The notes under the pieces were generated by a model. That model did not search any database. It saw only the letters and a program-made list of their open reading frames with translations, and was not told the DNA's origin. A stretch of DNA of 64,000 bases from a candidate division WWE3 bacterium (GTDB taxonomy: Bacteria; Patescibacteriota; WWE3; UBA101185; UBA10185), in contig JACPGI010000004.1 in NCBI GenBank assembly GCA_016182565.1, positions 110,223-174,222 of the forward strand. Reading direction: 5' to 3'. The translations under genes and the position numbers were made by a program. Every line of letters starts with the position of its first letter. Position 1 is the stretch's first letter. Below, in pieces: positions 31,582 through 57,380 of this stretch.

Positions 31582-31582
31582 C

Positions 31583-40043: not shown

Positions 40044-40223
40044 ATGAGGGATTTAATCAAACCCACAACTGAAGATATTGAGCAAATAAAAACCTTTTTT
40101 AAAGAAAGATATGGGGTTTTATTAACTGATGAAGAAGCAAAAGAAGCGTTTATCTCACTTTATTACTTAGGAAAAGCGCTATACAGATATAACAACTTAT
40201 CAGAGAGGATTTTAAATGGTTGA
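40044..40223 (+). CDS. conserved small module protein (59 aa; paralog of 46300-46482); not in supplied ORF track
   Basis: hand translation 'MRDLIKPTTEDIEQIKTFFKERYGVLLTDEEAKEAFISLYYLGKALYRY...' aligns with 'IPTKEELQHLKCFLEAKFGVAFTNSEVLESYYSLTHLGKAIYLF'. Confidence 0.6.
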   Translation: MRDLIKPTTEDIEQIKTFFKERYGVLLTDEEAKEAFISLYYLGKALYRYNNLSERILNG

Positions 40224-41316: not shown

Positions 41317-42833
41317 ATACTGATTTAAAATATATTATTTATTGTAGAAAATCCTCGGAAGAAGAAAACCGACAAGCACAATCTCTTGATACTCAAAAAA
41401 CTACACTCTTAAAGTATGCACATGATAATAAACTTGATTTTGTTTGTATTTATGAAGAATCTAAAAGTGCTAAAGATGATAATAACCGAATGTTTTTTGA
41501 TGATATGCTTTCTAAACTTAAATCTGGAGAAGCAAATGCAATATTAGTACAGCATTTGGATAGGTTAAGCAGAAATAGAATTGATACAGGTGAATTAATT
41601 AAGTTATTCCAAGAGGGTAAATTAAAAGAGATTAGAACCCCATATAAAGCTAATAATACGATTTATGATTTGTTTAGTATGGATTACGAGTTTATTAACG
41701 CTATTCATTATTCTGCAAGGTTATCAATTCGAGTTAAAGAAGGTATTGATACAAAATTAAGAAAAGGTGAATTTCCTGGTCCTCCTAAACTTGGTTATAT
41801 AACTGTTAATAAAAAACATACTCCTGACCCAGAAAGAACACCTTTTATCAAAGAAATATTTGATTTATATACTGGTAGCAGAGTTTCTATTGAGATTATT
41901 GCTGATACGCTTTTTGATAAAGGTTTTAGAACTCTAAGCGGTAAAAAAGTATATACCTCTGCAATAGCACGAATACTTCAAGATACCTTTTATACAGGTA
42001 AGTTTTTGTATAAAGGAACTGTTTATCAAGGTATTCATAAACCAATAATATCAGAACAGCAGTTTAAACTTGCTAATGAAATAAGGGTAGGTAAAAGCAA
42101 ACCTCGACCTAAAACTGATTTGGATTTTTTGTATAGAGGTTTTTTAAAATGCAATTATTGTGGTTGTGCTTTAACTCCAACTCTTAAAAAGGGTAAATAT
42201 GTATATTACTTCTGTACCAATGGTAAAAACATGTGTGAACAGCACAAAGATTATCTTGGTGAAGGTGATTTAACCCCTAAAGTAACCAGTATTTTCCAAA
42301 ACTTCATAATTGATAAAGATATGGCGACCAAATCCCTTGAGGTTTACAAGAAACAAACCATACAAGCATACGAAGATAAAGTACAGGTTAAAAAGTCACT
42401 AGAAACCCATGTAGAAGCTTTAAACGATAAGTTAGATAAGCTATTAGATACTTACCTAGAAGAAAAAGTAGATAGCAGTACATACAGCAAGAAACAAACA
42501 AAGATAAAACAGGAAATTAAGCAAATTGAAGATAGAATATCAAAACTTAATAAATCACCAAAAACCACTCTGGAACTTTTGGATAAGTTTAAACAGCAAT
42601 GTTTTTCTCTTGGTGAAGTGTATGAACATGGAGATAAAGAGGTTAAGAAAGATTTGTTAAATTCCGCACTCTGGAACTTTTCTATGCTTAATGGAGAAAT
42701 AGCGTCAGTACAATATAAACTACCTTATAAATACATGAATGAAGCTTCTAAAAGTGGTGATTTTTCAATTTGGCTGGGGAACAGGGATTCGAACCCCAAT
42801 ACCTGGGACCAAAACCCAGAGTCCTACCGTTAG
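41313..42833 (+). CDS. large serine recombinase (resolvase catalytic domain + recombinase domain + zinc ribbon + coiled coil), copy 1
   Basis: 'YIIYCRKSS' catalytic Ser region, 'LDRLSRN', Cys cluster 'CNYCGC...YYFCTNGKNMCEQH'; C-terminus reads through antisense of tRNA-Gln. Confidence 0.85.
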   Translation: MNTDLKYIIYCRKSSEEENRQAQSLDTQKTTLLKYAHDNKLDFVCIYEESKSAKDDNNRMFFDDMLSKLKSGEANAILVQHLDRLSRNRIDTGELIKLFQEGKLKEIRTPYKANNTIYDLFSMDYEFINAIHYSARLSIRVKEGIDTKLRKGEFPGPPKLGYITVNKKHTPDPERTPFIKEIFDLYTGSRVSIEIIADTLFDKGFRTLSGKKVYTSAIARILQDTFYTGKFLYKGTVYQGIHKPIISEQQFKLANEIRVGKSKPRPKTDLDFLYRGFLKCNYCGCALTPTLKKGKYVYYFCTNGKNMCEQHKDYLGEGDLTPKVTSIFQNFIIDKDMATKSLEVYKKQTIQAYEDKVQVKKSLETHVEALNDKLDKLLDTYLEEKVDSSTYSKKQTKIKQEIKQIEDRISKLNKSPKTTLELLDKFKQQCFSLGEVYEHGDKEVKKDLLNSALWNFSMLNGEIASVQYKLPYKYMNEASKSGDFSIWLGNRDSNPNTWDQNPESYR

Positions 42834-42844
42834 ACGATTCCCCA
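42771..42844 (-). tRNA. tRNA-Gln (anticodon UUG), CCA encoded
   Basis: hand-folded cloverleaf: acceptor UGGGGAA/UUCCCCA, anticodon loop UUUUGGU, T-loop UUCGAAU, discriminator G; resembles bacterial tRNA-Gln. Confidence 0.8.
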
Positions 42845-42996: not shown

Positions 42997-43557
42997 TTAG
43001 GGTTGGATTGGAGTTATTTTGAGGCTAGTGCTTTCAACTTCACACTTTGCATCAATCGAAATTGCGACCTTAATCACAATCGGCCAACGCTCCCACATTA
43101 AAGTGGTCTCAAAGTATTGTTGACCATCAGGAAACGTTTTCAGCACAGGCCACCGGGTAACCTCAATAGTATCTTGAGACTTGTACCCGTCTCCTACATG
43201 GTACAAACTTACCCATGCTTTAGGTGCACTTTTACCGCACCATTCGTTGGCATCCTGGTAGTTTCCACCGATATACCACCCCAGAGCATTTTTTGTAGCT
43301 GAATATTGCCTGTGAACCCCATCTGTATCAGAGACCTCAACAAATGGAAGTTCAACTGTACCTTCAACTGCACCAATTATTCCGACTGCATAGGGTATTG
43401 TATTCGGAGTTGGGCTATTGAATGCCTCAGCATAATACCTGTATCTGTCCTCAAGTGTTTGCTGGTCCGGCATCGACAACATCGTGGCAATACATCCCGC
43501 CGCTACTAAAATAAGTACCAACACAGTACCAATCCCTTTCAATACATTTTTATTCAT
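42997..43557 (-). CDS. lipoprotein (hypothetical), GC-elevated
   Basis: lipobox-like 'LVAAGC'; ~43% GC vs ~32% background. Confidence 0.55.
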   Translation of the reverse strand: MNKNVLKGIGTVLVLILVAAGCIATMLSMPDQQTLEDRYRYYAEAFNSPTPNTIPYAVGIIGAVEGTVELPFVEVSDTDGVHRQYSATKNALGWYIGGNYQDANEWCGKSAPKAWVSLYHVGDGYKSQDTIEVTRWPVLKTFPDGQQYFETTLMWERWPIVIKVAISIDAKCEVESTSLKITPIQP

Positions 43558-43758
43558 TGTTCCTCTCCCTTGTTACATCATATTTTGATTTCCGGCGAAT
43601 TATATCTTATAGTATGCCAAATTACAATTATTATAGGTCATTAATAAAATTGTTTAATTTCGGGAAAATTTCTAAACAGGATATTTAATTAATAAAAGTT
43701 GGAGTGAGTATTTGGTGGAGCATTTGGGACTATGTTGGAACTAATTCCCTAGTACTCG

Positions 43759-44259
43759 CTACCCATAAAGTTTAATCATTCTATCAATATTTTCACTTAA
43801 GGTATCTAATTCAACCTCTTTTCTTCTAGTATCAACATTGCTAATATCCCATAAGTTAATAGGTTCATATTTTCCCTCACTTGTTTTAGTGAATTGAGTA
43901 CCATAAATCTGTTGTTTTCCTTGTGCTAACAATACTCTATCTTTTAAGTATGCATAGTCACGTTTATTTACGTCCTCCATATTCTTTTCCATTAATTCTA
44001 AATATTTTTCTTGTAAATTTATATCCGGAGAATGTTGGACTAATTTCCAAGATTGGAATGAACTTTTCTTTCCAACCTTACTTATTGTAGGTAAACCAAA
44101 ATCCTTAAGTACCTCTGTAATAAACTTGGTGCTTTTCTCGTCAATTTCCTTCATTTGTTCAAGAAATTTCTCGTCCTTAGAGTTAATGTAATTAGTTCTA
44201 ATCTTAGTATCTTCTTCAAAGAGGGATTGTAATGTTGAAACTAGGTAATTTATTTTCAT
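43759..44259 (-). CDS. hypothetical protein
   Basis: 166-aa charged helical ORF. Confidence 0.45.
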   Translation of the reverse strand: MKINYLVSTLQSLFEEDTKIRTNYINSKDEKFLEQMKEIDEKSTKFITEVLKDFGLPTISKVGKKSSFQSWKLVQHSPDINLQEKYLELMEKNMEDVNKRDYAYLKDRVLLAQGKQQIYGTQFTKTSEGKYEPINLWDISNVDTRRKEVELDTLSENIDRMIKLYG

Positions 44260-44287
44260 ACAATAAAGTGGAACTCTCGCAAAAAAT

Positions 44288-44722
44288 TTACAAACTCAAA
44301 CGAGAACATACTTCAAGAAATTTACTTTTAATATCCTCAAATGCTAAATGTTTAAGCACTTCCTCTTTTGATAACCACTTCAAATCAACAATTTTTGCTT
44401 GTATTTTTGGGGAAGCAGCTAAATTAAAATTTCCAGCGTAGTAATAGGTTATCCCTTTCTTTCCTGCTCTATCAGGTTTTTCATTACCATAGATAAATTC
44501 ATTAGTAATACCCGTATCCGATAGTTTGTAGTCAGTATTACTTAATCCTAATTCCTCAAAAATTTCTCGTTGCAAACCTGCTTCAATAGTACTATCGTTA
44601 TCTTCTATTCTTCCCCCAACAAAAGTCCAAAATGAATTTTTATGTTGTAACAGCAAATATTCCACCCTTTTATCAGGGTTAATTTTATAGATTATTACAA
44701 CTGCACCTTTTATTAAATCCAT
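44288..44722 (-). CDS. Nudix hydrolase
   Basis: Nudix box 'GGRIEDNDSTIEAGLQREIFEELGL'. Confidence 0.75.
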   Translation of the reverse strand: MDLIKGAVVIIYKINPDKRVEYLLLQHKNSFWTFVGGRIEDNDSTIEAGLQREIFEELGLSNTDYKLSDTGITNEFIYGNEKPDRAGKKGITYYYAGNFNLAASPKIQAKIVDLKWLSKEEVLKHLAFEDIKSKFLEVCSRLSL

Positions 44723-44762
44723 GGTGAGATTATAGCACCAACAAGGTTTTTTCGGATATTAC

Positions 44763-45480
44763 GTATCGGTAGTGGTCACCTCCCACCACTTAAATGGAAT
44801 GACGTCCTCCCCGGATAGCACTATGTTTGTCCGGGGTTTCCTTTGCTCCGCTTCTCATGAGAAGTCGTCAGTAACATCGTAACCTAAATCAGAATCATTT
44901 TGCTTACGTATGTATTTGCGTATCTGATCCTCATTGAGCCCTATTGTAGAGACAAAGTACCCCACACTCCACACACCACTATCACCGTACATCTTATCTA
45001 TAAATTTAAACTTAGTTCTAAGGGTGGAACTTGATCTTGATTTCAACTCACGAACTACGTCGGAGATACAATCAGTCGGAGGAAACTCTATTCTCATGTG
45101 TATATGGTCATTGTCTGTATTGAGTTGAAATATGAACCAGGTGGGGTGTGTGCGCAGTGTTTTGTAAAAGCTTTTGACTAGTTCCAAGCGAACATAGGGC
45201 TTTAGTATCTTCCTACCATACTTTGTTCTCCAAACAATGTGATACTGAGTTTGGTATGTGCTATGACTTAGTTGACGAATCCTCATGATGACAGAATAGC
45301 ACTTCGTGCTATTCCCATTCGTCCATGAACTGCGTTCGCAATTCCTCGACCCTTGCTCACTTGTTCATGGTTTGCTGGTATGGATTAGAAAAAGCACACA
45401 CGTAGTGTGTGCTAAAATCCTCCCACTGTGGTGGGAAGTGATTGGATTTCCACCGAAGCATGGGGTACACTCCAACCACT
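44763..45480 (-). mobile_element. IS200/IS605-family insertion sequence (TnpA only, IS200 group), ~0.72 kb; boundaries approximate
   Basis: Y1 HUH transposase gene flanked by GC-rich subterminal palindromes ('agtggtcacctcccaccact', 'cccactgtggtggg'); inserted 3' of a TTAC; GC well above host. Confidence 0.7.
44855..45286 (-). CDS. tnpA: IS200-type Y1 transposase TnpA
   Basis: 'HIVWRTKYGRKIL', HUH 'HIHM', catalytic Tyr region 'GYFVSTIG'. Confidence 0.85.
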   Translation of the reverse strand: MRIRQLSHSTYQTQYHIVWRTKYGRKILKPYVRLELVKSFYKTLRTHPTWFIFQLNTDNDHIHMRIEFPPTDCISDVVRELKSRSSSTLRTKFKFIDKMYGDSGVWSVGYFVSTIGLNEDQIRKYIRKQNDSDLGYDVTDDFS

Positions 45481-46272
45481 ATGGGGATAGATGAAATAAA
45501 AATTCTTAAAAACTTAAATCCTATTGAACTAACACCTGAAAAAGAAATATCAGAACAAACTTGGATTGCACTAGGTAAGGTTCTTAACGATGATAGAACA
45601 TATGTTTTTATTGAAGATTTTAGAAAATCCTATGGTTTACCTAAAAATGGTTTGGATATAACAAAATTTGTTGGTAAAAACTTCAAAGAATTAGGTTTAG
45701 ATAACTATTTAGGAATGGGTTTATCCGTTATTTCCGCTACTCTTTCAGAACGAACAGGATTAGGTAATGCTTTTAACGACCAATTGTTACTACTCCTGTA
45801 TTTTAATGCTTTCTTAGATTGTAACCATTACAATAAATTACCTAGTTTTGAAATTAATTTTGTTGCAGGTAAAGAACAAATATCAAATGCTTGTTGGAAA
45901 TATCCTCATGAAATAGGTGCTATTTTAATACCTGTTTTTGCTAACAAACAAATGGTGCTTGATTGGGTTGGAAAACATTGGGAAGAAACCATTGAAAAAC
46001 AACTGGATAGCAAAATCTACGATAATCCTTTTGCGGAAACTACTCTTCAGTGGAGTAAAATAGCAACCGAAATAATTTACTACAGAGATAAGGAAAAGAA
46101 ACAATTTAAAGAAATATCTACAATACTTTTTGATAAATATGGCAAAGAATATGCTGTTGTTGCTGATGAAGATTGGGCTCGTGCTATATATCACCAATAT
46201 AAAGAACATTTAAAGTTGTGGGAACAATCAAAGCGAAAGCAAAAATCAGCGAAAACTCTTACTCAAAAATAA
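45481..46272 (+). CDS. module-associated hypothetical protein X2 (paralog of 39237-39980); track start 45442 is a TTG inside the IS end
   Basis: homology of N-terminus beginning at ATG 45481 with X1. Confidence 0.6.
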   Translation: MGIDEIKILKNLNPIELTPEKEISEQTWIALGKVLNDDRTYVFIEDFRKSYGLPKNGLDITKFVGKNFKELGLDNYLGMGLSVISATLSERTGLGNAFNDQLLLLLYFNAFLDCNHYNKLPSFEINFVAGKEQISNACWKYPHEIGAILIPVFANKQMVLDWVGKHWEETIEKQLDSKIYDNPFAETTLQWSKIATEIIYYRDKEKKQFKEISTILFDKYGKEYAVVADEDWARAIYHQYKEHLKLWEQSKRKQKSAKTLTQK

Positions 46273-46299: not shown

Positions 46300-46482
46300 A
46301 TGCTGGAAATCAAAATACCCACAAAAGAAGAATTACAACATTTAAAGTGCTTTTTAGAAGCAAAATTCGGTGTTGCTTTCACCAATAGTGAAGTTTTGGA
46401 AAGTTATTACTCCCTAACACACCTTGGTAAAGCAATATATCTGTTTTGTAAACAACAGGAGGTTAAAAATGAAACCTCTTGA
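46300..46482 (+). CDS. conserved small module protein (60 aa), copy 2
   Basis: paralog of 40044-40223. Confidence 0.6.
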   Translation: MLEIKIPTKEELQHLKCFLEAKFGVAFTNSEVLESYYSLTHLGKAIYLFCKQQEVKNETS

Positions 46483-47422
46483 AACACAAGAAGAAATTGT
46501 TAAATATTTTGGTTCACCACTTGAAGAACCTGAACTTCACACCGAGTTATATTACAAACCAAAAATATCCCAAACTGATATTTTAATAAAAGAAATCCTC
46601 GCCAACAAGCATAGCGACGAAAGTCGCATGCTTTCCCCCTTTACTCTACTAGATAGTACCGTCGTAATTCCTCCAGTTATTGATAAGTTTAAAATTGCTT
46701 ATTACCAAACAACAACGGAATATGGGAATTATGTTGATATTTATATTCATGAAAAACCCATAATTAAAGCAAAAAACCTAAAATCCCGAAATGTACGAGG
46801 AGGTAGGTACAAGGAAAATGAGGAAAAACCAGATAGGGGTAACGAATATCGCAGAAGAAACTCAATCAAAGCATTAAACATGATAAAACAACTAACACTT
46901 CAAAATTTCACTAAAGAAAATGTGAAACTGCTAACCCTTACTTTTGGAGATTGTGCTTTTGATATCAATAATCCAAGGATTTGTGACCCCTTATTTAGTA
47001 TTTTTATGTGTAAATTACGAAAGTTATTTCCTGATTTAAAGTATCTAGGTGTTTTAGAGTTCCAAAAACGAGGTGCTGTTCATTACCATGTTTTGTGTGA
47101 TTTACCCTATATCAAAAAAGAAGAAATAGCAGAACTTTGGGGATATGGTTTTATTGATATTAGAAAACCTGATTATGTTATTGGAACTTACTTGTATAAA
47201 TATCTATCAAAGGATTTAAACGACGAAAAATTAAAAGGTGTTAGGGTATATTTTCACTCTAAAAACCTTGAAAAACCCGTTAATAAAACTGGAGTACCTG
47301 CATTTGATGTAATTTCCAGATTTCAAAATTCAGAAATACACTTTACTAACCAGTATACAAATAAATATAATGGGGGTACTGTAAAATACTTACAGTTTAA
47401 AGTTTCTCCTACCCAAACATAA
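46469..47422 (+). CDS. HUH-superfamily rolling-circle replication initiator (Rep), copy 2
   Basis: motif I 'LLTLTFGD', motif II 'VHYHVLCD', motif III 'YLYKYLSKD'; ATG 46469 preceded by 'aggagg' SD (track gives upstream start 46424). Confidence 0.75.
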   Translation: MKPLETQEEIVKYFGSPLEEPELHTELYYKPKISQTDILIKEILANKHSDESRMLSPFTLLDSTVVIPPVIDKFKIAYYQTTTEYGNYVDIYIHEKPIIKAKNLKSRNVRGGRYKENEEKPDRGNEYRRRNSIKALNMIKQLTLQNFTKENVKLLTLTFGDCAFDINNPRICDPLFSIFMCKLRKLFPDLKYLGVLEFQKRGAVHYHVLCDLPYIKKEEIAELWGYGFIDIRKPDYVIGTYLYKYLSKDLNDEKLKGVRVYFHSKNLEKPVNKTGVPAFDVISRFQNSEIHFTNQYTNKYNGGTVKYLQFKVSPTQT

Positions 47423-47429
47423 AAGATAT

Positions 47430-48890
47430 ATGAATAATTGCTTTATTTATTGCAGAAAATCTACAGATTGTGCTGATAAACAAGAACAATCCCTTGAAAC
47501 CCAAGAGAGAATTTGCTTGGAAACTGCAAAGCGATTTAATCTTAGTGTTGTTGATACCATTCTTGAAGCAAAATCTGCTAAAGATGCTGGAAACCGACCC
47601 AAATTTGATAACTTAATTTATCGCATTCGTAATAAAGAAGCAGATATTATTATTACTTGGGATATTGATAGATTAGCAAGAAACTTAACAGAAGCAGGTT
47701 TATTACAACAACTTTATGAAACTGGATTAATAACAAAAATAATCACTGAACATGATATTTATGCTTCTGATAGGGATTTTATGAATATTGGTCATGAGTT
47801 TGTTGATGCTTCTAATTATTCCCGAAAACTTCGTTCTAAAGTTAAAGATGGTACTGATACCAAACTTAAAAGAGGTGAAATTCCGGGTTCTTCAAAAATT
47901 GGTTACTACATAGTTGATAAGAAAATGAAACCCGACCCAGATAGAGCACCTTTTGTAAAACTTGCTTTTGAAATGTATACAGACGGTAAACACTTAAGAG
48001 AAATAACCAAAACCTTATATGAAATGGGTTTTAGAACCAAAAAGGGTTACAAGGTTTATCTAAACACTATAAACAAAATGCTAAAGCGAATTGATTACAC
48101 TGGTACATTTGAGTACAACAAACAACTATATCAAGGAAGTTACGAACCACTTGTTTCAATGGAATTATTTGACAAGGTTCAAAAACTGATTGTTAAAAAC
48201 AACATTCCAAAATCCCAGAAACACTACTTTCTTTACCGAGGTTTTATTAAATGTGGGCATTGTGGTTGCATGCACACTGCTACAACTAAAAAAGGAAAAT
48301 ATATTTATTACTACTGCACTAATTCCAAAAGAATTTGTAAACAGCACCAAAAATATATTGAGGAACAGGATATGCATGATTTATATAGCAATAAACTTTC
48401 AGAACTCCCAATAGATACCGAGATACTAAATCAATCTTACGAGTTATATGCTAAAAATTACCTACAGCAGTATAAAGAGGTGGAAAATCAGAAAACCATT
48501 GTTAAAAAGCAACTGGTGAGTGTAGAAACCAGTATAAACAGGTTAGTTGATATTTATATTAGGGGAGAAATACAACAGGAGGTTTATTCTCGAAAATACA
48601 AGCAACTGGTTTTAGAAAAAGAAACCCTCCAAAACACACTTATCAAACTGGAAACTCAAAAACCTGAAGAAACCTTGGAACTTATTAAAAAATTCAAAGA
48701 TTATTGTTGTACCTTGCAAAACACCTACTCCAAGGGAAACAATGGGGTGAAAGAAGAAATCTTAAAAGCAGTGTGTTGGAACTTTTCAATCAATAATGGA
48801 AAAATCGCTTCAATACAATACAAAAAACCATTTGATATGATTGCAAAACTACCTAAAAATGCTGATTTTGTTCAATGGTGGGCGGTATAG
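47430..48890 (+). CDS. large serine recombinase, copy 2
   Basis: 'FIYCRKST', 'IDRLARN', zinc ribbon 'CGHCGC...YYYCTNSKRICKQH'; terminal 'QWWAV*' codons overlap antisense of tRNA-Val CCA. Confidence 0.85.
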   Translation: MNNCFIYCRKSTDCADKQEQSLETQERICLETAKRFNLSVVDTILEAKSAKDAGNRPKFDNLIYRIRNKEADIIITWDIDRLARNLTEAGLLQQLYETGLITKIITEHDIYASDRDFMNIGHEFVDASNYSRKLRSKVKDGTDTKLKRGEIPGSSKIGYYIVDKKMKPDPDRAPFVKLAFEMYTDGKHLREITKTLYEMGFRTKKGYKVYLNTINKMLKRIDYTGTFEYNKQLYQGSYEPLVSMELFDKVQKLIVKNNIPKSQKHYFLYRGFIKCGHCGCMHTATTKKGKYIYYYCTNSKRICKQHQKYIEEQDMHDLYSNKLSELPIDTEILNQSYELYAKNYLQQYKEVENQKTIVKKQLVSVETSINRLVDIYIRGEIQQEVYSRKYKQLVLEKETLQNTLIKLETQKPEETLELIKKFKDYCCTLQNTYSKGNNGVKEEILKAVCWNFSINNGKIASIQYKKPFDMIAKLPKNADFVQWWAV

Positions 48891-48952
48891 GGATCGAACC
48901 TATGACCTTTCGGATGTAAACCGAATGCTCTAACCAGCTGAGCTAACCGCCC
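48876..48952 (-). tRNA. tRNA-Val (anticodon UAC), CCA encoded
   Basis: acceptor GGGCGGU/ACCGCCC, D-arm GCUCAGCUGGUUAGAGC, anticodon loop UUUACAU, T-arm AUAGGUUCGAUCCCUAU. Confidence 0.85.
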
Positions 48953-48972: not shown

Positions 48973-49404
48973 TCATTTAAGTCCAGTAGTGCCAAAGCCT
49001 CCGCGTGAGTCATTTCCAAGATAATCCACTTCTGTTAGAGTCATTCTTTCTACAGGTAGAATTATAAGTTGCGCTATCCTTGTACCTTTTTCTACTATAA
49101 TTTCATTTTTTGTTCTATTTAATACTGTGAATTTAAGTTCATCGTTGTCTCCACAATAATCACTGTCGATTATTCCAATTCCGTTTGCAGGCGTTAGTCC
49201 AAGTTTTTGAGTTGAACTTCTTGATGCAAGTAATGCAAAATAACCACTTGGGATTTCCATAGCTACATTTAAAGGTATATAACCTACCTCCCCTGCTGCA
49301 ATCTTTGTATCAAGTCTTGAATAAAGATCCACACAAGTAGCACCTTTTGTTTTGTATTCAGGAAGCGGGATTGTTTTATCAAATCTTTTTATTTTAACCT
49401 TCAT
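48973..49404 (-). CDS. dut: dUTP diphosphatase
   Basis: 'GIIDSDYCG' and C-terminal 'RGGFGTTG' dUTPase motifs. Confidence 0.85.
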   Translation of the reverse strand: MKVKIKRFDKTIPLPEYKTKGATCVDLYSRLDTKIAAGEVGYIPLNVAMEIPSGYFALLASRSSTQKLGLTPANGIGIIDSDYCGDNDELKFTVLNRTKNEIIVEKGTRIAQLIILPVERMTLTEVDYLGNDSRGGFGTTGLK

Positions 49405-50104
49405 CTTGTTTTCCCATGTAAAAATATTCTTTACTAAACATAAAAACCATTAAAACTTCATGCAAACGAAACCTATTATTGCCAGTTTGTGAGCTATGTA
49501 ATTTCCAAGCTTTAATTTTATGTAAAAGTTCACTAAGAGATAAAGTTAATACATGGGTTGGGTAGATTGGTTTAATTTTTGCTGGATGTTCAGCCATTGC
49601 AAGCAATTTTTTGGGAATAATAAATTTTGGGCTTACTGTAGAATAAATAATTTTAAGATTTAATATTTTTCCTAAATCCGTAAGTAGCTTTGATACGAAA
49701 ATATGATCTGGATGACCATATATACCACATGGTTCGTATGTTATTAGAATATTAGGATTATAGTTTTTAAATATATCAAGAAAATATGCTCTTACATCTA
49801 TTAGACATTCTTTTAGTTTTTTATCTGGAAAATCTTCTATATGATAATCTTTGACCCCAAGATAGTTCATCACTTGCTTATATTCTGCGGATCTTTTATT
49901 AGCAAGCATTTCATTTTCAGATAACCCAAACTTCAAAGTGCTTGCTTCCCCTTTGGTCAAACAAATCAATTTAAAATCTACCTTCATCTGAAGTAATTTC
50001 TGCATCAACCCACCTACTGAAAAAACTTCATCATCGGGGTGTGGGTATACAATAAGTACTCTTTTATTTTTAAAGGTGTTATATACGTTAAGTTTTAACA
50101 TCAC
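49394..50104 (-). CDS. PIG-L/LmbE-family N-acetylglucosaminyl deacetylase
   Basis: 'LIVYPHPDDEVF' and 'HPDH' metal-binding motifs. Confidence 0.8.
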   Translation of the reverse strand: MMLKLNVYNTFKNKRVLIVYPHPDDEVFSVGGLMQKLLQMKVDFKLICLTKGEASTLKFGLSENEMLANKRSAEYKQVMNYLGVKDYHIEDFPDKKLKECLIDVRAYFLDIFKNYNPNILITYEPCGIYGHPDHIFVSKLLTDLGKILNLKIIYSTVSPKFIIPKKLLAMAEHPAKIKPIYPTHVLTLSLSELLHKIKAWKLHSSQTGNNRFRLHEVLMVFMFSKEYFYMGKQDEG

Positions 50105-51444
50105 TTATTGGGATATTGAGTGCTTCTACTTCTGTCCGTTTTTGTATTAGTATCTTCAACTTCACTTACGGTTTTATTATTTCCATCGTCGTTTTCGGTA
50201 ACTTGTTCATTTTTATCAAGTTGTTCGCTTATGCTTGTAAGCTCATTGCTACTCCCGTTACCATTTTTATATCCGTTCATTGCGGCAATCATTGGAGCGT
50301 AATAATTTGCATTTGATTCATAATTCTCATCGCCCGACTCAGTACCACCTGAATTAGCATTTTGGTTCGCATCGTTATTTAGATTTGCAAGTGTTCCAAT
50401 CCCGCCTGTAAGTTCATGTAAGTAGTTTTGATTACTTGGATCAAGTAGCGTGTTTTCTATCATTCTTTTTAAAATTTCCGAGAAAGGTACGTTATATAAA
50501 TCCTGGATAATATAACCCATTGCTGTGGTTAAAGATTTTGGACCAAAAGCTGGGTTTGCGTTTGAGTCTATAAAATAATATCTTCCAGAGCTATCAAGTC
50601 TTACATCAAATTTACCGTAATCTGCCATCTTTGTTATATCAAATGCTTTTTTTGCAAGATACCTTAGGTTTGGCTCTTCGTATTTTTCATATTTATATGA
50701 ATCCCCAGTTGTATTAATCCATTGATCATCAAATGTGGCAAAAACATATTTTTCACCTGGCTTATTAAAAACTTTTTCTGCCATATAGACTTTTGTGTTT
50801 GTGCCATGCAATACCATACATGTTATTTCTCTACCTGCAATAAATTCTTCAACAACTACTGACTGTTCGTAAGTTTTCATAAGATAACTTAGCCTATCTC
50901 TTAGTTGTTTTTCATTTTCAACGACAGCATCTTTTGTTATTTCAACTGCACCATGTATTTCATTTAGTTTAACAATAAGTGGGTACCTTAAATTTATATC
51001 AACTTGGTCATTTGGAGAGTGAAAAAGTTGGAAATTAGGAACAGGTATAGCAGCATTTTTCATAAGTTCTTTTGTAAGAAATTTGTTGTAGCAAAGAGCA
51101 AGTCCTAATAGTCCAGCACCGGTATATGGCATGCCTATCATGTCTAAAATCCCAGGTATTGTGGAAGTCAAATATTCTTCACCATTTATGGAATCAACCA
51201 AATCAAACACCATGTCTGGTTGATCACTAAGAAGGGCCACTATTAAAGTTTCGTTTCCGGGGTAAAGTATAGGAGTAACACCAATCTTTTTTAATTCCTC
51301 GGCAATTACACACGCGTCACTATAAGCATCTTTTTCTGTAATATATTGCTCCTCTGTGTAGAAGTATTCTCTTTTGACATCACTGTAAATGATGCCAATT
51401 GTAAGTTCCGGTAATTTTTCCTCTATCGCACTTCCTGATGCCAT
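50101..51444 (-). CDS. ATP-grasp ligase (D-Ala-D-Ala ligase-like fold) with ~100-aa Asn/Gly/Ser-rich disordered C-terminus
   Basis: 'EEFIAGREITCMV', 'FDVRLDSSGRYYFIDSNANP' ATP-grasp C-domain pattern. Confidence 0.7.
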   Translation of the reverse strand: MASGSAIEEKLPELTIGIIYSDVKREYFYTEEQYITEKDAYSDACVIAEELKKIGVTPILYPGNETLIVALLSDQPDMVFDLVDSINGEEYLTSTIPGILDMIGMPYTGAGLLGLALCYNKFLTKELMKNAAIPVPNFQLFHSPNDQVDINLRYPLIVKLNEIHGAVEITKDAVVENEKQLRDRLSYLMKTYEQSVVVEEFIAGREITCMVLHGTNTKVYMAEKVFNKPGEKYVFATFDDQWINTTGDSYKYEKYEEPNLRYLAKKAFDITKMADYGKFDVRLDSSGRYYFIDSNANPAFGPKSLTTAMGYIIQDLYNVPFSEILKRMIENTLLDPSNQNYLHELTGGIGTLANLNNDANQNANSGGTESGDENYESNANYYAPMIAAMNGYKNGNGSSNELTSISEQLDKNEQVTENDDGNNKTVSEVEDTNTKTDRSRSTQYPNK

Positions 51445-51456
51445 ATTTTTGTATTA

Positions 51457-52518
51457 TTAATTCTCAAAACTCAAATAACTACTAATCATTTTTTTAGTCC
51501 AATGTTCTACTGCGTACTCGCAAGTCTTTAATAAAAATTCTCCATCATTAAAACCTGCACTATAAACAGCCTCCATAAATTCCCCATCAAGTTCAGAATT
51601 TGGATTTGCATCAATAACATATGCTTTATTATCTTGAACCTTTAATTCAATTCTTGCATATCCTAAACAACCTAAGGTTTTATATGCAAATTTTGCTTCA
51701 TCTATTATCTTAGCTTGAAGAGTACTGTCTATGTCAATAACAATTTCAGGGTATATTAAATCATATTCTTCAGTTCCTGGTTTTGTTTTTGCAGCATCTG
51801 TGTATATTTCATATTTATTTTTGTAAGCACACACAATTTTTTGTAAAGGTAGAATTTCTTCGGCATTGTTTCCAAGAATTACAACTACATACTCTGTTCC
51901 AGCAATGTATTGCTCAACTAAAAGTTTTCTCTTGTTAAATCTGAAATAATTTAATATTTTTTCTTCTAACTCTTCCTTGTTTTCTGCAACTGAATCATCA
52001 GATATACCAAGGGATCCATGGTCTTCGGCTGATTTTAGTATGACAGGAAATATTGTGTTACCGGGTATTTTAAGGTCTTTGTCATTTTCGAGAATAAAAT
52101 ATTGAGGTGAGTTTACTTTTGCATCTTTTAATAGCTTTTTTGTGAGTTCTTTTTTGACATTTATTTCAAGACATTTAGAGTCACCACCAGTAAAGATATA
52201 TTTATTATTTTCCAAAAATTTGGCGACATCGTGACTTGTATTTATCTGTCCTGGAATTTCTTCACACCAATTAAAAATTACGGTATCGTTTTTATCAAAT
52301 TTAGCTAATTCTTTTGCAAGTTCATCCATTGATTTAACTTCTATAAAATAAAATTCGTATTCAGTGTTAAATTCTTTATTTATTTTTTTGAAGTCCCTTT
52401 CAACATTATCTATAAACCAAATTTGCCATTCCTGAATTGTTTTTGGAAATTCATTTGGCTCAACAAAATCTGAAATCATAACTATTTTTTTTCTTGAAAG
52501 TGTTGGTGTATAACTCAC
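51457..52518 (-). CDS. ATP-grasp ligase (D-Ala-D-Ala ligase-like fold)
   Basis: 'VEQYIAGTEYVVVIL', 'ARIELKVQDNKAYVIDANPNSELD'. Confidence 0.7.
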   Translation of the reverse strand: MSYTPTLSRKKIVMISDFVEPNEFPKTIQEWQIWFIDNVERDFKKINKEFNTEYEFYFIEVKSMDELAKELAKFDKNDTVIFNWCEEIPGQINTSHDVAKFLENNKYIFTGGDSKCLEINVKKELTKKLLKDAKVNSPQYFILENDKDLKIPGNTIFPVILKSAEDHGSLGISDDSVAENKEELEEKILNYFRFNKRKLLVEQYIAGTEYVVVILGNNAEEILPLQKIVCAYKNKYEIYTDAAKTKPGTEEYDLIYPEIVIDIDSTLQAKIIDEAKFAYKTLGCLGYARIELKVQDNKAYVIDANPNSELDGEFMEAVYSAGFNDGEFLLKTCEYAVEHWTKKMISSYLSFEN

Positions 52519-52598
52519 GATAAAATTATATGTGTTTAAAATAAAGTAGCAATATTTATTTAACTTATTTAGTGTAAAATTTAACTACTACATAATGT

Positions 52599-54116
52599 AT
52601 GGTAAATACAGAACATATTTCTTTAGAAGAAATAGAACCAGAAAAATCAAAAGATACTGCTGAACCCAAAAGATTTAATCAGGAATTACAAACTGTTTCT
52701 ATAGGAGATTACACACCAATTGCTCGTGGAGAGACTTTGCGTCCTTTTTCTTCTGATTTATATCCTCGGGGAACTATTTTACCAAAATATAATAGAGAAA
52801 ATGTCCCACCAGATGCACAGAAATTTAAATATATTGAAAGTTCAGTACATGGGAGAACCATAGACGAGGTGTTACCATTTCAAACAATCTGGGCCGATAA
52901 ATACAATATTAAATATGGAGCAAGAGATTTAAAAGGAGCAAGACATGAAAAAGTAGCAATAATTGTAAACGACTTATCAAATAGAATTAGCATTCAAAAT
53001 TTCAAAAGAGATTTGCAGAAAGGAAACCAAGAACTTGCCGAATTAGAAAAAGATAAACCATATAACTTAATTAGAGCGAGCGGACTTTATGACGAAACAG
53101 ACGTAAGCTATTTAATTAAAGCATCAGATTATTTGAGGAAAAACAGTATTCCAACTGAAAATGTTGTGTGCATTTATGAAATAAATGAGGTTATTTTAAA
53201 TGGGGAGCGAACACCATTAAAAGTCTGGGCAGTAGCAAACTTACTGGAACATATTAGATTACAAGAAGAGTCTGGAAATCCCGACAAGAAATTAATTGCA
53301 GATATTGCTAAATTTGCTGCTGAAACAAAATTCTATGAGGTAGAGCGGGAAGTTCAGGTCTCTGAACGTATTAGAGATATTGCTGTTTGTAAAACTGAAG
53401 ACGAGTTTTTGGCCCTAATTGAAAATCCAATAAAATGGCTAAACACTTTAGCAAAAGTTACTGGTGAAGGTGTCATACCTGGAAGTGAAAAACCAGAATA
53501 TTTTGATATACAAGGATATAAAAATTTAACTGGGGTTGAGAGATTAGCTAAAAAAGAGGAGTTTAAAAGGTACCTACGTGACTGGCTTCCTTCGCAGATG
53601 GGAAAGTATCTTGGAAAATTAAAGAAAGTTGGTGTAAAAAATGATTTTGGGCACGCACAGCAATGGTCTGCAGTTGCATCAATGTATGATGCTCAATCTT
53701 TTGTTGGCAGAGAATTAAACGGGCAAACTCTAAAGGAGGAAGATTATATAATTTCTCTGCAAGAAGCTTTGGGTGTTTTAGAAGAGCTTTTTAGGCCTAG
53801 TGAAGGAAATTTTGTACAAAAAGAATTTGGTGAGGGTGGGGAAACTCTACAAATTGCTAAGGAACACCTGCTTACCAATTACTTACTAGAGATAGGTTTT
53901 CCGAAGAATAAACATAAGGAGATGTATAGCTATGAAAATCTATTCGATAATTCTTTTTTTGATGGAAGTAAATCAAACTTTAGATTCTTGGACCCTGAAA
54001 TATATATAAATGTTATGGGCAAGTTTGGCTTTACCTTTGATGAAAAAGCGATTACTGACTTATGGAAAAAAAGAAGCGCATTTTTAGATGAGGTCCATAA
54101 GAAAATAGGCTCATAG
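52599..54116 (+). CDS. 505-aa hypothetical protein, no recognisable domain
   Basis: long hydrophilic ORF, divergent from flanking operon. Confidence 0.5.
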   Translation: MVNTEHISLEEIEPEKSKDTAEPKRFNQELQTVSIGDYTPIARGETLRPFSSDLYPRGTILPKYNRENVPPDAQKFKYIESSVHGRTIDEVLPFQTIWADKYNIKYGARDLKGARHEKVAIIVNDLSNRISIQNFKRDLQKGNQELAELEKDKPYNLIRASGLYDETDVSYLIKASDYLRKNSIPTENVVCIYEINEVILNGERTPLKVWAVANLLEHIRLQEESGNPDKKLIADIAKFAAETKFYEVEREVQVSERIRDIAVCKTEDEFLALIENPIKWLNTLAKVTGEGVIPGSEKPEYFDIQGYKNLTGVERLAKKEEFKRYLRDWLPSQMGKYLGKLKKVGVKNDFGHAQQWSAVASMYDAQSFVGRELNGQTLKEEDYIISLQEALGVLEELFRPSEGNFVQKEFGEGGETLQIAKEHLLTNYLLEIGFPKNKHKEMYSYENLFDNSFFDGSKSNFRFLDPEIYINVMGKFGFTFDEKAITDLWKKRSAFLDEVHKKIGS

Positions 54117-55035: not shown

Positions 55036-55111
55036 TGGTGGGAAGAGTGGGAATCGGACCCACATAGCCGGTTTTTCAGACCGGTGCCTTGACCAACTTG
55101 GCTATCTTCCC
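55036..55111 (-). tRNA. tRNA-Phe (anticodon GAA)
   Basis: acceptor GGGAAGA/UCUUCCC, anticodon loop CUGAAAA, T-arm GUGGGUCCGAUUCCCAC, CCA encoded. Confidence 0.8.
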
Positions 55112-55127
55112 GCTTTGCATAATTAAA

Positions 55128-55203
55128 TGGAGCGACGGACCGGACTCGAACCGGCGACCTCCTCCTTGGCAAGGAGGCGTTCTACCAACTGAACTACCGT
55201 CGC
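55128..55203 (-). tRNA. tRNA-Gly (anticodon GCC)
   Basis: acceptor GCGACGG/CCGUCGC, anticodon loop UUGCCAA, discriminator U, CCA encoded. Confidence 0.85.
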
Positions 55204-55239
55204 ATAAACAAAAACTATTTTAACATGTAAAAAATTATT

Positions 55240-55326
55240 TGGTGGGCGAGACAGGACTTGAACCTGCACAGGTTTTACCCCACAACGACCTCAACGTTGC
55301 GCGTATGCCAATTCCGCCACTCGCCC
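55240..55326 (-). tRNA. tRNA-Leu (anticodon GAG), type II long variable arm
   Basis: UGGCGGAAUUGG D-region typical of Leu, anticodon loop UUGAGGU, 87 nt. Confidence 0.8.
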
Positions 55327-55388
55327 ATGCAAACATGTGATATTTTATCATGTTTTCTTAAATTCAGAATCTATATTTACAATATGGT

Positions 55389-55475
55389 TGGTGCCAGAGA
55401 TGGGATTTGAACCCATACGCCTTTTACAGCACTGCCTTCTGAAGACAGCGAGTCTGCCAATTTCTCCACTCTGGC
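55389..55475 (-). tRNA. tRNA-Leu (anticodon CAG), type II
   Basis: acceptor GCCAGAG/CUCUGGC, anticodon loop UUCAGAA, long variable arm, 87 nt. Confidence 0.8.
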
Positions 55476-55511
55476 ATAAGTTTTTAGTATTAAGCGGCTA
55501 GAAATAAAATT

Positions 55512-55586
55512 TGGTGAGGGCGGTGGGATTCGAACCCACGACACACGGATTAAGAGTCCGATGCTCTACCACTGAGCTACGCCCCC
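55512..55586 (-). tRNA. tRNA-Lys (anticodon CUU)
   Basis: D-arm GCUCAGUGGUAGAGC, anticodon loop CUCUUAA, T-arm GUGGGUUCGAAUCCCAC. Confidence 0.75.
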
Positions 55587-55661: not shown

Positions 55662-56486
55662 TCAACTACCACTTACTATCTCAACAATTTTTTCAAATCT
55701 ATCTCTTGCAGTTGTATTAAAAAATAATCTTCTAGCATTGTCATCAGCCATAGGTACACCTTCTTGCCACAACGATCTACCGGCTAGAAATCCAACACAC
55801 CCTGCTGATGTAGCAATTTCTAAGTGATTGGCAAAATTATCAAAACTGTCCCCTTTAGTAAGAAGTATCCAGGGGATCCCATTTAAAAGTTTAGTCACTT
55901 GATTAGAATCTTCCTGTGAGCCAGGATATTCTAATTTGAATACATCGGGAAGAACCCCGGCTTTAATATACTGCTCCACACAAGCTAAAATCAAGAACTC
56001 ATCCTCCTTATGGTTGTAGGTTACAAGCTCTAAAAAATAAGGGAGATCTTTTTCTTTTGCCATCTCCATAACAGCTCCTGCCGTTTCTATTTGCTTGTTT
56101 CGGGTTTTTGCATCAGGATGGCAATAAATCAAAAGTTTTACGCCCTCAGCCCCCGCCTCTTCAAGTTCGCTAATTGTATATTTTAGCTTTGTTACCCTTT
56201 CGCCACCTTCGTCAGTGTAACCAGTCTCCTCAATTGGCAACAAAAATGGCTTCAGTGAATCGTGCAAACTTTTATAAGCAGGAAGTCCAATTTCTTTGTC
56301 AATTAAAGTTCCACTCATAAGGTCATAAACACCGGAAATTATTTCCGATTTAACTTGAATAGCCTTTTCTTTAGTTACCCTGTCTGGGTTAGCTGGATCA
56401 ATAGACTTCATAAAAGAACCTCTATGGTCTAAGGCAAGCATCAATATTTTTCCGTTTGTTGTGAATTTTTCTAATTTATTATGCAT
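55662..56486 (-). CDS. class I aldolase of the DeoC/LacD (tagatose-/fructose-bisphosphate aldolase) family
   Basis: 'ILMLALDHRGS' substrate-binding signature and TIM-barrel length. Confidence 0.6.
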   Translation of the reverse strand: MHNKLEKFTTNGKILMLALDHRGSFMKSIDPANPDRVTKEKAIQVKSEIISGVYDLMSGTLIDKEIGLPAYKSLHDSLKPFLLPIEETGYTDEGGERVTKLKYTISELEEAGAEGVKLLIYCHPDAKTRNKQIETAGAVMEMAKEKDLPYFLELVTYNHKEDEFLILACVEQYIKAGVLPDVFKLEYPGSQEDSNQVTKLLNGIPWILLTKGDSFDNFANHLEIATSAGCVGFLAGRSLWQEGVPMADDNARRLFFNTTARDRFEKIVEIVSGS

Positions 56487-56878
56487 TTTAGGGCAGCTTC
56501 CAATTCATCAGGTTCTTTATAAAGTATAACTTTTGTAGAAAACATTTTTAAGAAGGAAGTTAGGTATTCTCTTTTTGTCACTAAGAAAACCCTTTTTCCT
56601 ATTAATCTTGCGAAAACAAACTCAAATATCAAGCCTTTACTAAACACATCTGATGTAACAAAAGCTACAATAGCATCAGATTTTTTGATATTTTTGGTTA
56701 TAATCATGGTTTTGTGGGGAAGTGAGTGATTGGTATTGTCCCATTTTTGGACATCACGGCCTAACATGAAGGTGGAATGTCCACTTTTTTCAAGCAGTTT
56801 TGCAAAAATAATAAGTTCGTCTTTGAGTGCTAATTTATCCGCGATGTGAGTGTACTTATAAGCAATATACAACATCAT
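56471..56878 (-). CDS. hypothetical protein, possibly nucleoside 2-deoxyribosyltransferase-like Rossmann fold
   Basis: 135 aa; alternating beta/alpha pattern; no strong motif. Confidence 0.3.
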   Translation of the reverse strand: MMLYIAYKYTHIADKLALKDELIIFAKLLEKSGHSTFMLGRDVQKWDNTNHSLPHKTMIITKNIKKSDAIVAFVTSDVFSKGLIFEFVFARLIGKRVFLVTKREYLTSFLKMFSTKVILYKEPDELEAALKCIIN

Positions 56879-57304: not shown

Positions 57305-57380
57305 TGGTGCCCCCAGAGGGATTCGAACCCCCGACCCCTTGTTCCGAAGACAAGTGCTCTATCCGCTGAGCTATGGAGGC
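57305..57380 (-). tRNA. tRNA-Arg (anticodon UCG)
   Basis: acceptor GCCUCCA/UGGGGGC, D-arm GCUCAGCGGAUAGAGC, anticodon loop CUUCGGA. Confidence 0.8.

Follow-up and report, generated by a model that had tools for sequence, protein, structure and literature searches.

Paired D-Ala-D-Ala ligase-like ATP-grasp genes beside an LmbE-family deacetylase gene in a candidate division WWE3 bacterium

Two adjacent genes of an ultra-small CPR bacterium of candidate division WWE3, here called AG1 and AG2, encode ATP-grasp proteins of the D-alanine-D-alanine ligase (Ddl) structural clade, and neither is predicted from its sequence to be an ordinary Ddl. They form a real two-ligase module, a new variant among linked ATP-grasp amidoligase systems; the same adjacency of an AG1-type gene and AG2 recurs in about 16 related loci, with one more in which the two are fused. 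The LmbE/PIG-L deacetylase gene that follows adjoins the ligases only in this lineage and, judging from gene neighbourhoods, is probably not part of their pathway. The first-pass annotation had united both Ddl-like ligases and the deacetylase in one pathway; the conserved ligase pair stands, whereas the membership of LmbE is not supported. No named pathway matches the combination, as had been suspected, and a literature search found no work uniting 'ATP-grasp' and 'LmbE', none pairing 'Ddl-like' with 'ATP-grasp', and none linking CPR bacteria with Ddl.

Gene organization of the locus

The window, the whole stretch of DNA analysed, covers 64 kb of a 244-kb contig. On its minus strand AG1, AG2, the LmbE gene, dut and a tRNA gene form a same-strand string, of which the first three are tightly packed. 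The overlapping or abutting arrangement described for these three in the first-pass annotation was recovered, with ORFs at exactly the positions given there. AG1 (51457..52518, minus strand) encodes 353 aa (Pfam Dala_Dala_lig_C 67.6 bits, cut-off 24), AG2 (50101-51444, minus strand) encodes 447 aa (64.2 bits on the same model), and the LmbE/PIG-L (CE14) deacetylase gene (49394..50104, minus strand) encodes 236 aa (Pfam PIG-L 98 bits, cut-off 28.2). The final protein gene of the string, not mentioned in the first-pass annotation, is dut (48973..49404, minus strand), a housekeeping dUTPase gene of unrelated function (NCBIfam NF001862 103.4 bits, cut-off 103; Pfam dUTPase 80.8 bits), with tRNA-Val(TAC) directly downstream (48876..48952, minus strand; ARAGORN and Rfam, 71.9 bits). 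The string ends at this tRNA gene, which also borders an integrated module with Rep and a serine recombinase; no attachment-site repeats of at least 18 nt were found for the neighbouring mobile modules. Opposite the three genes there is no ORF of at least 80 aa.

The AG1 stop and the AG2 start are 12 nt apart, the TGA of AG2 overlaps the start of the LmbE gene (GTGATG), and the LmbE gene and dut overlap by 11 nt. Tight packing alone is not unusual here, because 22 of the window's 42 junctions between same-strand genes are of 15 nt or less (coding density 89 %). The dUTPase gene is equally co-packed, therefore packing at this locus joins unrelated functions, and the locus is an example of how start-stop overlaps are weak evidence for shared function in CPR genomes. 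A thymidylate link was also considered and rejected: dut is near AG2 in just three further loci, and Tmk near AG2 is confined to one Roizmanbacteria synteny block with ClpB.

A promoter-like site (TTGCTA-16-TATAAT; 52525..52552, minus strand), which is a consensus match only (10/12 in a scan), ends 6 nt before the GTG that starts AG1 and would yield an almost leaderless mRNA for the four genes. Homologues have N-termini that align with AG1 residues 1-13, which supports the start at 52518. Rfam identified tRNAs only over the window, with no riboswitch or other RNA in the 80-nt intergenic region upstream of AG1.

Relationship of AG1 and AG2 to D-Ala-D-Ala ligase

Both proteins have the three-domain Ddl fold, with Ddl/VanA as the closest folds, and are 25 % identical to each other. 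The profile and structure comparison proposed with the first-pass annotation placed Ddl matches clearly above RimK or LysX matches and below the curated NCBIfam Ddl cut-offs: on NF002378 (cut-off 243) and TIGR01205 (cut-off 245.65), AG1 scores 74.4 and 65 bits and AG2 scores 110.8 and 106 bits. The ATP and Mg residues K97, K144, E180, E187, D/E257, D270 and N272 are kept in both families. AG2 itself keeps K97, K144, E180, E187, D257 and N272, with a conservative E to D change at position 270. AG1 and AG2 also have derived features in common (H149, D270 and an NxNP motif). In family HMM cross-scores AG1, AG2 and a third Ddl-like ligase, AG3, are nearer to one another than to Ddl, with the caveat of a 3-bit gap for AG3, which scores about equally against E. 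coli DdlB (128 bits) and AG2 (131 bits). In the model set out below, AG1 and AG2 are old paralogues, within an ATP-grasp clade related to but distinct from D-Ala-D-Ala ligase, that would work together.

Neither protein has the full E. coli DdlB set of S150, K215, Y216, R255, S281 and L282. AG2 carries R255K, K215Q, S150G and Y216W, has E at G153 and does not keep positions 281 and 282; HGAVE stands in place of the GSSxG loop. These are family traits, with G150, Q215, W216 and K255 found in 121/121 aligned sequences (77-84 of 85 in a second alignment). The R255K change and the altered phosphate loop could mean another chemistry, for example that of a kinase rather than a ligase. E26 of AG2, which would hold the alpha-amino group, is the probable equivalent of E15 in an uncertain alignment; the placement of the N-terminal positions E15 and H63 was unstable between the two alignments. 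In AG1, K215, R255 and the Mg ligands are kept in the family alignment, G149 is H, and the HGxxGEDG motif is replaced by FNWCE. The window AG1 has G150, T216, G281 and E282; across its family these positions vary, position 150 being S, G or A, and are not uniformly lost. That both ligases might be ordinary Ddl enzymes, as the first-pass annotation had allowed, is therefore contradicted by scores far below the cut-offs and by the changed substrate and catalytic residues of AG2.

The catalytic region of AG2 (50440..51444, minus strand; residues 1 to ~335) contains the KLNEIHGAVE and NANPAFGPK motifs. It is followed by a low-complexity tail (50104..50439, minus strand; residues ~336-447), which the first-pass annotation had called N/G/S-rich. 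Of its 112 residues 21 are N and 11 are S, and E, T and G account for 10 apiece, so that it is N/S/E/T/G-rich. That the tail is a conserved anchor or substrate was rejected, since tails in the family vary in length between about 0 and 115 aa and have no common motif.

Conservation of the ligase pair

AG2 is one of an orphan family of Ddl-like proteins, very well conserved (55-68 % identity) in Microgenomates and Anaerolineae (Chloroflexota), the members of which are named 'hypothetical protein' at NCBI and 'D-alanine-D-alanine ligase' at JGI. Because CPR genomes are tiny and AG2 is kept at this identity across phyla, it is likely to matter to the cells. With AG2 shown not to be a Ddl, no false peptidoglycan capacity need be inferred from its annotation.

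Genomic context in relatives, another of the proposed checks, gave a divided answer: the ligase pair recurs, but the trio with LmbE does not. An AG1-type gene lies beside AG2, mostly immediately upstream, in nine loci (L008, L011, L012, L013, L016, L018, L020, L022 and L051), pairing is also seen in L089, L094, L095, L096, L100 and L116, and L101 has a divergent arrangement. In L014, AG1 and AG2 are fused in a single 710-aa ORF. In 23 other Microgenomates loci AG2 adjoins AG3 instead. No second ATP-grasp gene is present within 10 kb in about 44 of the 80 AG2 loci, thus AG2 can function by itself or together with the product of a distant gene. The window contains no further Ddl-like gene beyond AG1 and AG2.

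AG1 is the rare, fast-evolving partner. Its mean identity is about 34 %, against 64 % for AG2 in the same genomes, a roughly twofold faster rate of change, which obligate partners do not usually show and which counts against the pair model. Its distant relatives include double ATP-grasp fusions, and the fusion relatives carry generic database names only.

The recurrent third partner is a small GNAT acetyltransferase rather than LmbE. A GNAT gene lies within one or two genes of the ligases in 12/80 AG2-anchored and 11/28 AG1-anchored loci, and ATP-grasp-GNAT fusion proteins (P0278, P0290 and P0314) are present among AG1 relatives. None was found in the whole 64-kb window by tblastn, therefore the 'capping' step is either lacking at this locus or replaced.

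The LmbE-family deacetylase

As the first-pass annotation had stated, the third gene encodes a PIG-L (PF02585) protein with an HPDDE motif; its zinc motifs are intact (HPDDE at residues 22-26, HPDH at 131-134). Scores are well under the cut-offs of the deacetylase equivalogs BshB2 (61.3 bits, cut-off 195), MshB (43.4, cut-off 224) and BshB1 (34.6, cut-off 182.5). The best solved relative is the Pyrococcus diacetylchitobiose deacetylase (Dac, PH0499; E 1e-13, residues 3-139).

The neighbourhoods of 80 AG2-side species loci and about 28-30 AG1-side loci were scanned with the LmbE profile. Apart from the window, a match near AG2 was found in one of the 80 (L006), and there was none in the 28 AG1-anchored loci. 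In L005 there is a weak match at a distance of 9 kb. In L006, a distant WWE3 genome, the LmbE gene is two genes away from AG2, on the opposite strand and in another transcription unit. The LmbE proteins of L006 and the window are 42 % identical and the AG2 proteins 65 %, and a bPH gene is also common to both. Because of the opposite strand and the common bPH gene, this is likely to be remnant synteny and not operon selection. LmbE orthologues (44-49 % identity) are found beside AlaRS/GroES, AspRS or PEP-utilising genes, with no ATP-grasp gene in any of these three contexts. LmbE as a conserved partner was rejected on the basis of tblastn, the profile scan and the three LmbE-side contexts. Some CPR orthologues are fused to NUDIX, which suggests, from domain architecture, a nucleotide-linked substrate rather than one like that of Dac.

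Possible functions of the module

In the model preferred here, AG1 and AG2 would each use bound ATP and Mg to convert a carboxylate by phosphorylation into an acyl-phosphate, to be transferred to an amine, as in Ddl chemistry. Acting successively or as a heteromer, they would join amino-acid-type substrates into a short product resembling a peptide, and the GNAT encoded beside the pair in most relatives would probably cap the substrate or product by N-acetylation. The LmbE gene and dut would be co-transcribed with the pair through the compact genome's packing of unrelated genes head to tail, and LmbE most likely performs a separate GlcNAc or amino-sugar deacetylation. The model as a whole, with distinct paralogues, a peptide-like product and a separate LmbE, is judged evenly balanced between right and wrong. 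Of the earlier proposal, successive amide ligations or a short non-ribosomal peptide fit the pair, adjacent at about 16 loci and fused in L014; the deacetylated-sugar acceptor is not supported.

A role in peptidoglycan synthesis is rather unlikely. AG1, or AG3 in other Microgenomates, would then be its lineage's own, very divergent D-Ala-D-X ligase, with AG2 as an accessory enzyme for another stem-peptide or cross-bridge component. The Ddl/VanA-like folds are consistent with this, as are the K215, R255 and Mg ligands of AG1, and AG3 keeps the Ddl GSSxG loop, K215, R255, D257, N272 and PG276, scoring 150-165 bits on Ddl models. All of these scores are, however, under the curated Ddl cut-offs, and the window AG1 lacks the S150, Y216, S281 and L282 equivalents, although these positions are variable across its family. 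A MurL-like gene (5.8e-8) lies directly upstream of AG2-AG3 in four Roizmanbacteria loci, MurL being a UDP-MurNAc-dipeptide epimerase family (PMC8788868), but the match is weak (31.7 bits, cut-off 700) and confined to one syntenic lineage. Furthermore, a canonical Ddl (315 bits, cut-off 262) is encoded 9 kb from AG2 in the relative L023, no mur genes were found within the 64-kb window, and large-genome Anaerolineae have a solitary AG2 in unrelated contexts.

It is improbable that LmbE deacetylates a GlcNAc-containing acceptor and that AG1 and AG2 attach one or two amino acids to the amine so freed, giving an amino-sugar-peptide conjugate, at least in this WWE3 lineage. The AG2-LmbE start-stop overlap would allow translational coupling and is compatible with real co-function in the window's lineage, the LmbE zinc site is intact, and a second, distant WWE3 genome (L006) has LmbE within three genes of AG2; both LmbE-bearing loci lack the GNAT seen elsewhere. 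Some AG2 loci also contain envelope or glycan genes (GH18, a Polysacc_synt flippase and an ATPgrasp_ST-like protein). Against this, packing is equally tight at dut, neither a glycosyltransferase nor a Cys ligase gene is present in the string, and the first-pass annotation's amino-sugar pathway runs counter to the counts of LmbE near AG2 (1/80) and AG1 (0/28), to the remnant synteny of L006 and to orthologues placed elsewhere, some as NUDIX fusions.

A broader proposal combines these elements: AG2, a variable partner (AG1 or AG3) and GNAT would form an unrecognised, strongly conserved pathway of Microgenomates and Anaerolineae, and in the window's own WWE3 lineage the co-translated LmbE would supply a deacetylated amino-sugar acceptor, yielding a new amino-sugar-peptide conjugate. 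Taken jointly, this has a poor chance of being right; it would imply that a small peptide, or a peptide component of the cell envelope, of a new kind is made by a Ddl-derived enzyme with Lys replacing the universal catalytic Arg.

Very unlikely is a RimK/LysX-like modification of a conserved macromolecule (a protein C-terminus or carrier) by AG2, with AG1 or AG3 and a RimI-like GNAT as further modifiers: AG2 is as conserved as translation proteins across Microgenomates and Chloroflexota, stands alone in about half of its loci, and all three GNATs tested match rimI best among NCBIfam models (42-57 bits), but these matches are below the 86.4-bit cut-off and typical for any small GNAT, Ddl matches clearly beat those to RimK or LysX, no conserved small carrier or substrate gene adjoins AG2 in the contexts surveyed, and lateral transfer between co-occurring lineages could also give high identity.

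AG1 and AG2 are a tractable target, being soluble and of ~340 aa, with a natural AG1-AG2 fusion and relatives in large-genome Anaerolineae, and are suited to the discovery of novel ATP-grasp reactions or of a novel metabolite or envelope constituent.

Comparison with known systems

In mycothiol (MshA/B/C/D) and bacillithiol (BshA/B/C) biosynthesis, a GlcNAc conjugate is deacetylated by an LmbE-family enzyme and the amine so exposed is acylated by an ATP-dependent ligase, which is the analogy drawn in the first-pass annotation. MshC and BshC are not ATP-grasp enzymes, however, and the window LmbE is below the MshB/BshB cut-offs and not conserved with the ligases. The string contains no MshA/BshA-type glycosyltransferase or MshC/BshC Cys ligase gene, and the nearest glycosyltransferase genes in the 64-kb window are more than 30 kb away. 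Dac (PH0499) resembles the window LmbE in its PIG-L fold and zinc motifs, and GH18 genes were observed near AG2 in some WWE3 loci, but Dac aligns well only with the N-terminal half.

N-acetylated dipeptides are made by a GNAT and an ATP-grasp ligase in the Ngg (N-acetylglutaminylglutamine amide) and RIMKLA/B (N-acetyl-Asp-Glu) systems, which by description resemble the Ddl-like ATP-grasp-GNAT fusions among AG1 relatives. Both fall in the RimK/cyanophycin-type branch rather than with Ddl, and the window, unlike them, has no GNAT. Likewise, in the biosynthesis of mycosporine-like amino acids, the ATP-grasp enzymes MysC and MysD act successively on one scaffold, and MysD is D-Ala-D-Ala-ligase-like. 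Compared by description, AG1 and AG2 would be a similar successive pair, but there are no 4-deoxygadusol or EVS genes near it, and the host is a CPR bacterium with minimal metabolism.

Ddl and VanA (D-Ala-D-Lac/Ser) have the same ATP and Mg residues and length class, and probably an equivalent of E15 in E26 of AG2, in an uncertain alignment. Ddl is a single homodimeric enzyme, whereas AG1 and AG2 occur as hetero-pairs or fusions, score far below the curated values and, in the case of AG2, coexist with a true Ddl in L023.

The linked ATP-grasp amidoligase and GNAT neighbourhoods (Iyer et al., 2009, as summarised in PMC4431377) are, by the description in that summary, of other ATP-grasp clades (R2K and others), and the window differs in having LmbE and no GNAT. 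As summarised there, they have two different ATP-grasp genes per operon, often with a GNAT, as do the relatives of this locus. Successive peptide ligations with an optional acyl cap have been inferred for such linked genes (Burroughs et al., 2015, PMC4431377).

Organization of the gene string

The host is a member of candidate division WWE3 (Patescibacteria/Microgenomates). On the minus strand of the window, four protein-coding genes follow one another head to tail: the ATP-grasp ligases AG1 (51457-52518, 353 aa) and AG2 (50101-51444, 447 aa; identical to NCBI protein HYV31_02100, encoded on a 244-kb contig), a LmbE/PIG-L protein (LmbE; 49394-50104, 236 aa), and the dUTPase gene dut (48973-49404), after which follows tRNA-Val (48876-48952). 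Pfam assigns Dala_Dala_lig_C to both AG1 and AG2, and PIG-L to the third gene, in which the zinc motifs are HPDDE and HPDH. AG1 and AG2 are separated by 12 nt, AG2 and LmbE share a GTGATG start/stop overlap, and LmbE and dut overlap by 11 nt. The first-pass annotation had reported two ATP-grasp ligases and a PIG-L deacetylase abutting or overlapping on this strand, and these assignments and junctions bear it out. Its HPDDE motif and the low-complexity tail of AG2, which is rich in N, S, E, T, and G, are likewise confirmed. A consensus scan placed a putative promoter (TTGCTA-16-TATAAT) upstream of AG1, ending 6 nt before its GTG; this start is supported by the N-termini of homologues, which align with AG1 residues 1-13. 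Packing alone is little evidence here, because 22 of 42 same-strand junctions in the window are of 15 nt or less (coding density 89 %) and the unrelated dut is equally tight.

Divergence of the ligases from Ddl

The suggested profile and structure comparison of both ligases shows them to be related to Ddl, yet far below the Ddl cut-offs: against NCBI Ddl model cut-offs of approximately 243 bits, AG1 scores 74 and AG2 111, and the best solved-structure matches are to Ddl/VanA at only 1e-15 to 1e-17. With residues numbered by alignment to those of E. coli DdlB, members of the AG2 family retain the ATP/Mg residues K97, K144, E180, E187, D257, and N272, with a conservative E to D change at position 270. 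Invariant changes in the family are R255K, K215Q, S150G, Y216W, and G153E, and the phosphate loop reads KLNEIHGAVE in place of KPxxxGSSxG. K215 and R255 are retained in AG1, where position 149 is H, there are no equivalents of Y216 and S281/L282, and FNWCE replaces the HGxxGEDG motif. As the score and substrate-residue features that define Ddl were tested for and not found, Ddl identity was rejected for AG1 and AG2. They represent a clade derived from Ddl that is uncharacterised and whose most conserved member, AG2, invariably has Lys for Arg; a literature search found nothing on this clade.

The identity between AG1 and AG2 is 25 %. The AG2 family is large and unusually conserved: there are more than 1480 database matches, the best 120 of which are 57-68 % identical, and relatives occur in 207 GTDB species. 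Hosts include WWE3, Woese-, Roizman-, Beckwith-, and Chisholmbacteria, as well as Anaerolineae/Chloroflexota, in which one relative sits on a 4.9-Mb chromosome. The C-terminal tails are variable and unconserved in the family. AG1 is rare, with 15 matches in a word-indexed search (next best 30 % identical) and approximately 30 cluster representatives at E<=1e-30 in an exhaustive search. Across the same eleven genomes, mean identity is 34 % for AG1 versus 64 % for AG2.

Ligase pairing and the GNAT partner

The pairing of the ligases recurs in relatives. An AG1-type gene adjoins AG2, mostly directly upstream, in 9 of 80 AG2-anchored species loci, and among AG1-anchored loci, 27 from metagenomes and L089 have AG1 then AG2 whenever the contig extends far enough. 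In locus L014 (8918-11050), AG1-type and AG2 domains are in one 710-aa ORF with two Dala_Dala_lig_C stretches, a natural fusion that would be convenient for biochemistry. AG3, a third Ddl-like ligase (150-165 bits) that retains the GSSxG loop, K215, and R255, adjoins AG2 in 23 of the 80 loci; AG2 is duplicated in approximately five, and approximately 44 lack another ATP-grasp gene within 10 kb.

Some Microgenomates loci have rows of three Ddl-like genes: two AG2 copies and AG3 (L030 8925-12052), AG2 and two paralogues approximately 44 % identical to it (L065 104-3225), and AG3-AG2-AG3 (L069 8734-12041). A gene at 8524-9906 of L077 is also present in L040, L041, and L061; sister loci have an ATPgrasp_ST-like protein instead (L032 8530-9939).

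The recurrent third gene encodes a GNAT of 150-210 aa, divergent from AG1 or between both ligases, in 12/80 AG2-anchored and 11/28 AG1-anchored loci. At this place the window has a 505-aa ORF (52599-54116), divergent from AG1, which matches neither Pfam nor NCBIfam families and for which tblastn finds no homologue in AG2-anchored loci L001-L084. Distant AG1 relatives include Ddl-like ATP-grasp fusions to GNAT (Acetyltransf_3) in Wallbacteria (P0278, P0290, P0314), double ATP-grasp fusions (P0282, P0285, P0308, P0313), and single genes that follow a Peptidase_Mx-like gene, as in L090 (Aminicenantes) and L091 (unclassified metagenome contig). All of these form one broad clade, uncharacterised and bearing an FN[LW]CE motif.

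Association with LmbE

It had been proposed that LmbE frees an amino-sugar amine onto which AG1 and AG2 then ligate. Taken as a lineage-specific conjugate pathway, this is an unlikely alternative. The three genes do not hold as a conserved unit. A profile scan of the 80 AG2-anchored loci found a confident LmbE neighbour only in L006 (WWE3 RIFOXYC1_FULL_40_10), where it is encoded on the other strand with AG2 two genes away, and none was found in the 28 AG1-anchored loci. The L006 case indicates remnant synteny: a bPH gene lies beside LmbE there and likewise occurs near the operon of the window. LmbE orthologues at 44-49 % identity are in unrelated contexts. The closest solved relative is an archaeal diacetylchitobiose deacetylase (1e-13), and a separate amino-sugar role is most likely for LmbE. 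Its CPR orthologues P0147, P0149, P0151, and P0187 are fused to NUDIX (e.g. L088 4895-6001), which hints that the subfamily may act on a nucleotide-linked (sugar) substrate.

Other features of the window

Two similar modules, each a Rep (REP_ORF2-G2P) gene then a large serine recombinase gene, are at 40216-42844 and 46424-48952. The recombinases are 37 % identical, and the 3′ ends of their genes overlap opposite-strand tRNA-Gln (42771-42844) and tRNA-Val (48876-48952), respectively. The modules resemble small integrative elements of a CPR genome that target tRNA genes; a search for direct repeats of at least 18 nt flanking them found none. Between them, within 42997-46272, are a DUF6624 gene, a NUDIX hydrolase (44288-44722), an IS200-like Y1 transposase (44855-45286), and two ORFs that match no family. 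At 55036-55586 is a cluster of five tRNA genes (Phe, Gly, Leu, Leu, Lys), and tRNA-Arg is at 57305-57380; beside the cluster are a DeoC/LacD-type aldolase (55662-56486) and a weakly matching nucleoside 2-deoxyribosyltransferase-like gene (56471-56878). An MBOAT and AlgX-like SGNH pair of the polysaccharide or peptidoglycan O-acylation type (30526-33025) and an MprF C-terminal-like (LPG_synthase_C) gene (22389-23315) point to a capacity for envelope modification encoded in other parts of the window.

Proposed function

The fold, the retained ATP/Mg residues, the substrate-residue changes in AG2, the conservation of the pair, and the L014 fusion are observed. That AG1 and AG2 are active ligases and cooperate is predicted, as is the nature of their product. 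In the most likely mechanism, they would use Ddl-type chemistry, in which ATP and Mg yield an acyl-phosphate that is attacked by an amine, and would jointly make a short peptide-like product, either one after the other or as a heteromer. In relatives, the GNAT probably caps this product with an acetyl group. A peptidoglycan role for the pair is a less likely alternative, in whose favour are the Ddl-like character of AG3 and, in four loci of Roizmanbacteria, a neighbouring gene with a weak match to MurL. RimK/LysX-like modification of a macromolecule, suggested by the extreme conservation of AG2, is less likely again.

Comparison with known systems

Mycothiol/bacillithiol-like logic, invoked in the first-pass annotation, does not carry over as the identity of this system, which was rejected: unlike in those pathways, LmbE scores far below the deacetylase cut-offs, and the gene string has no glycosyltransferase or Cys ligase. 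The AG1-AG2 pair fits a known category of system, that of linked ATP-grasp amidoligases, which are frequently accompanied by a GNAT; PMC4431377 gives the same interpretation, ligations and an acyl cap, for other ATP-grasp clades with a linked GNAT.
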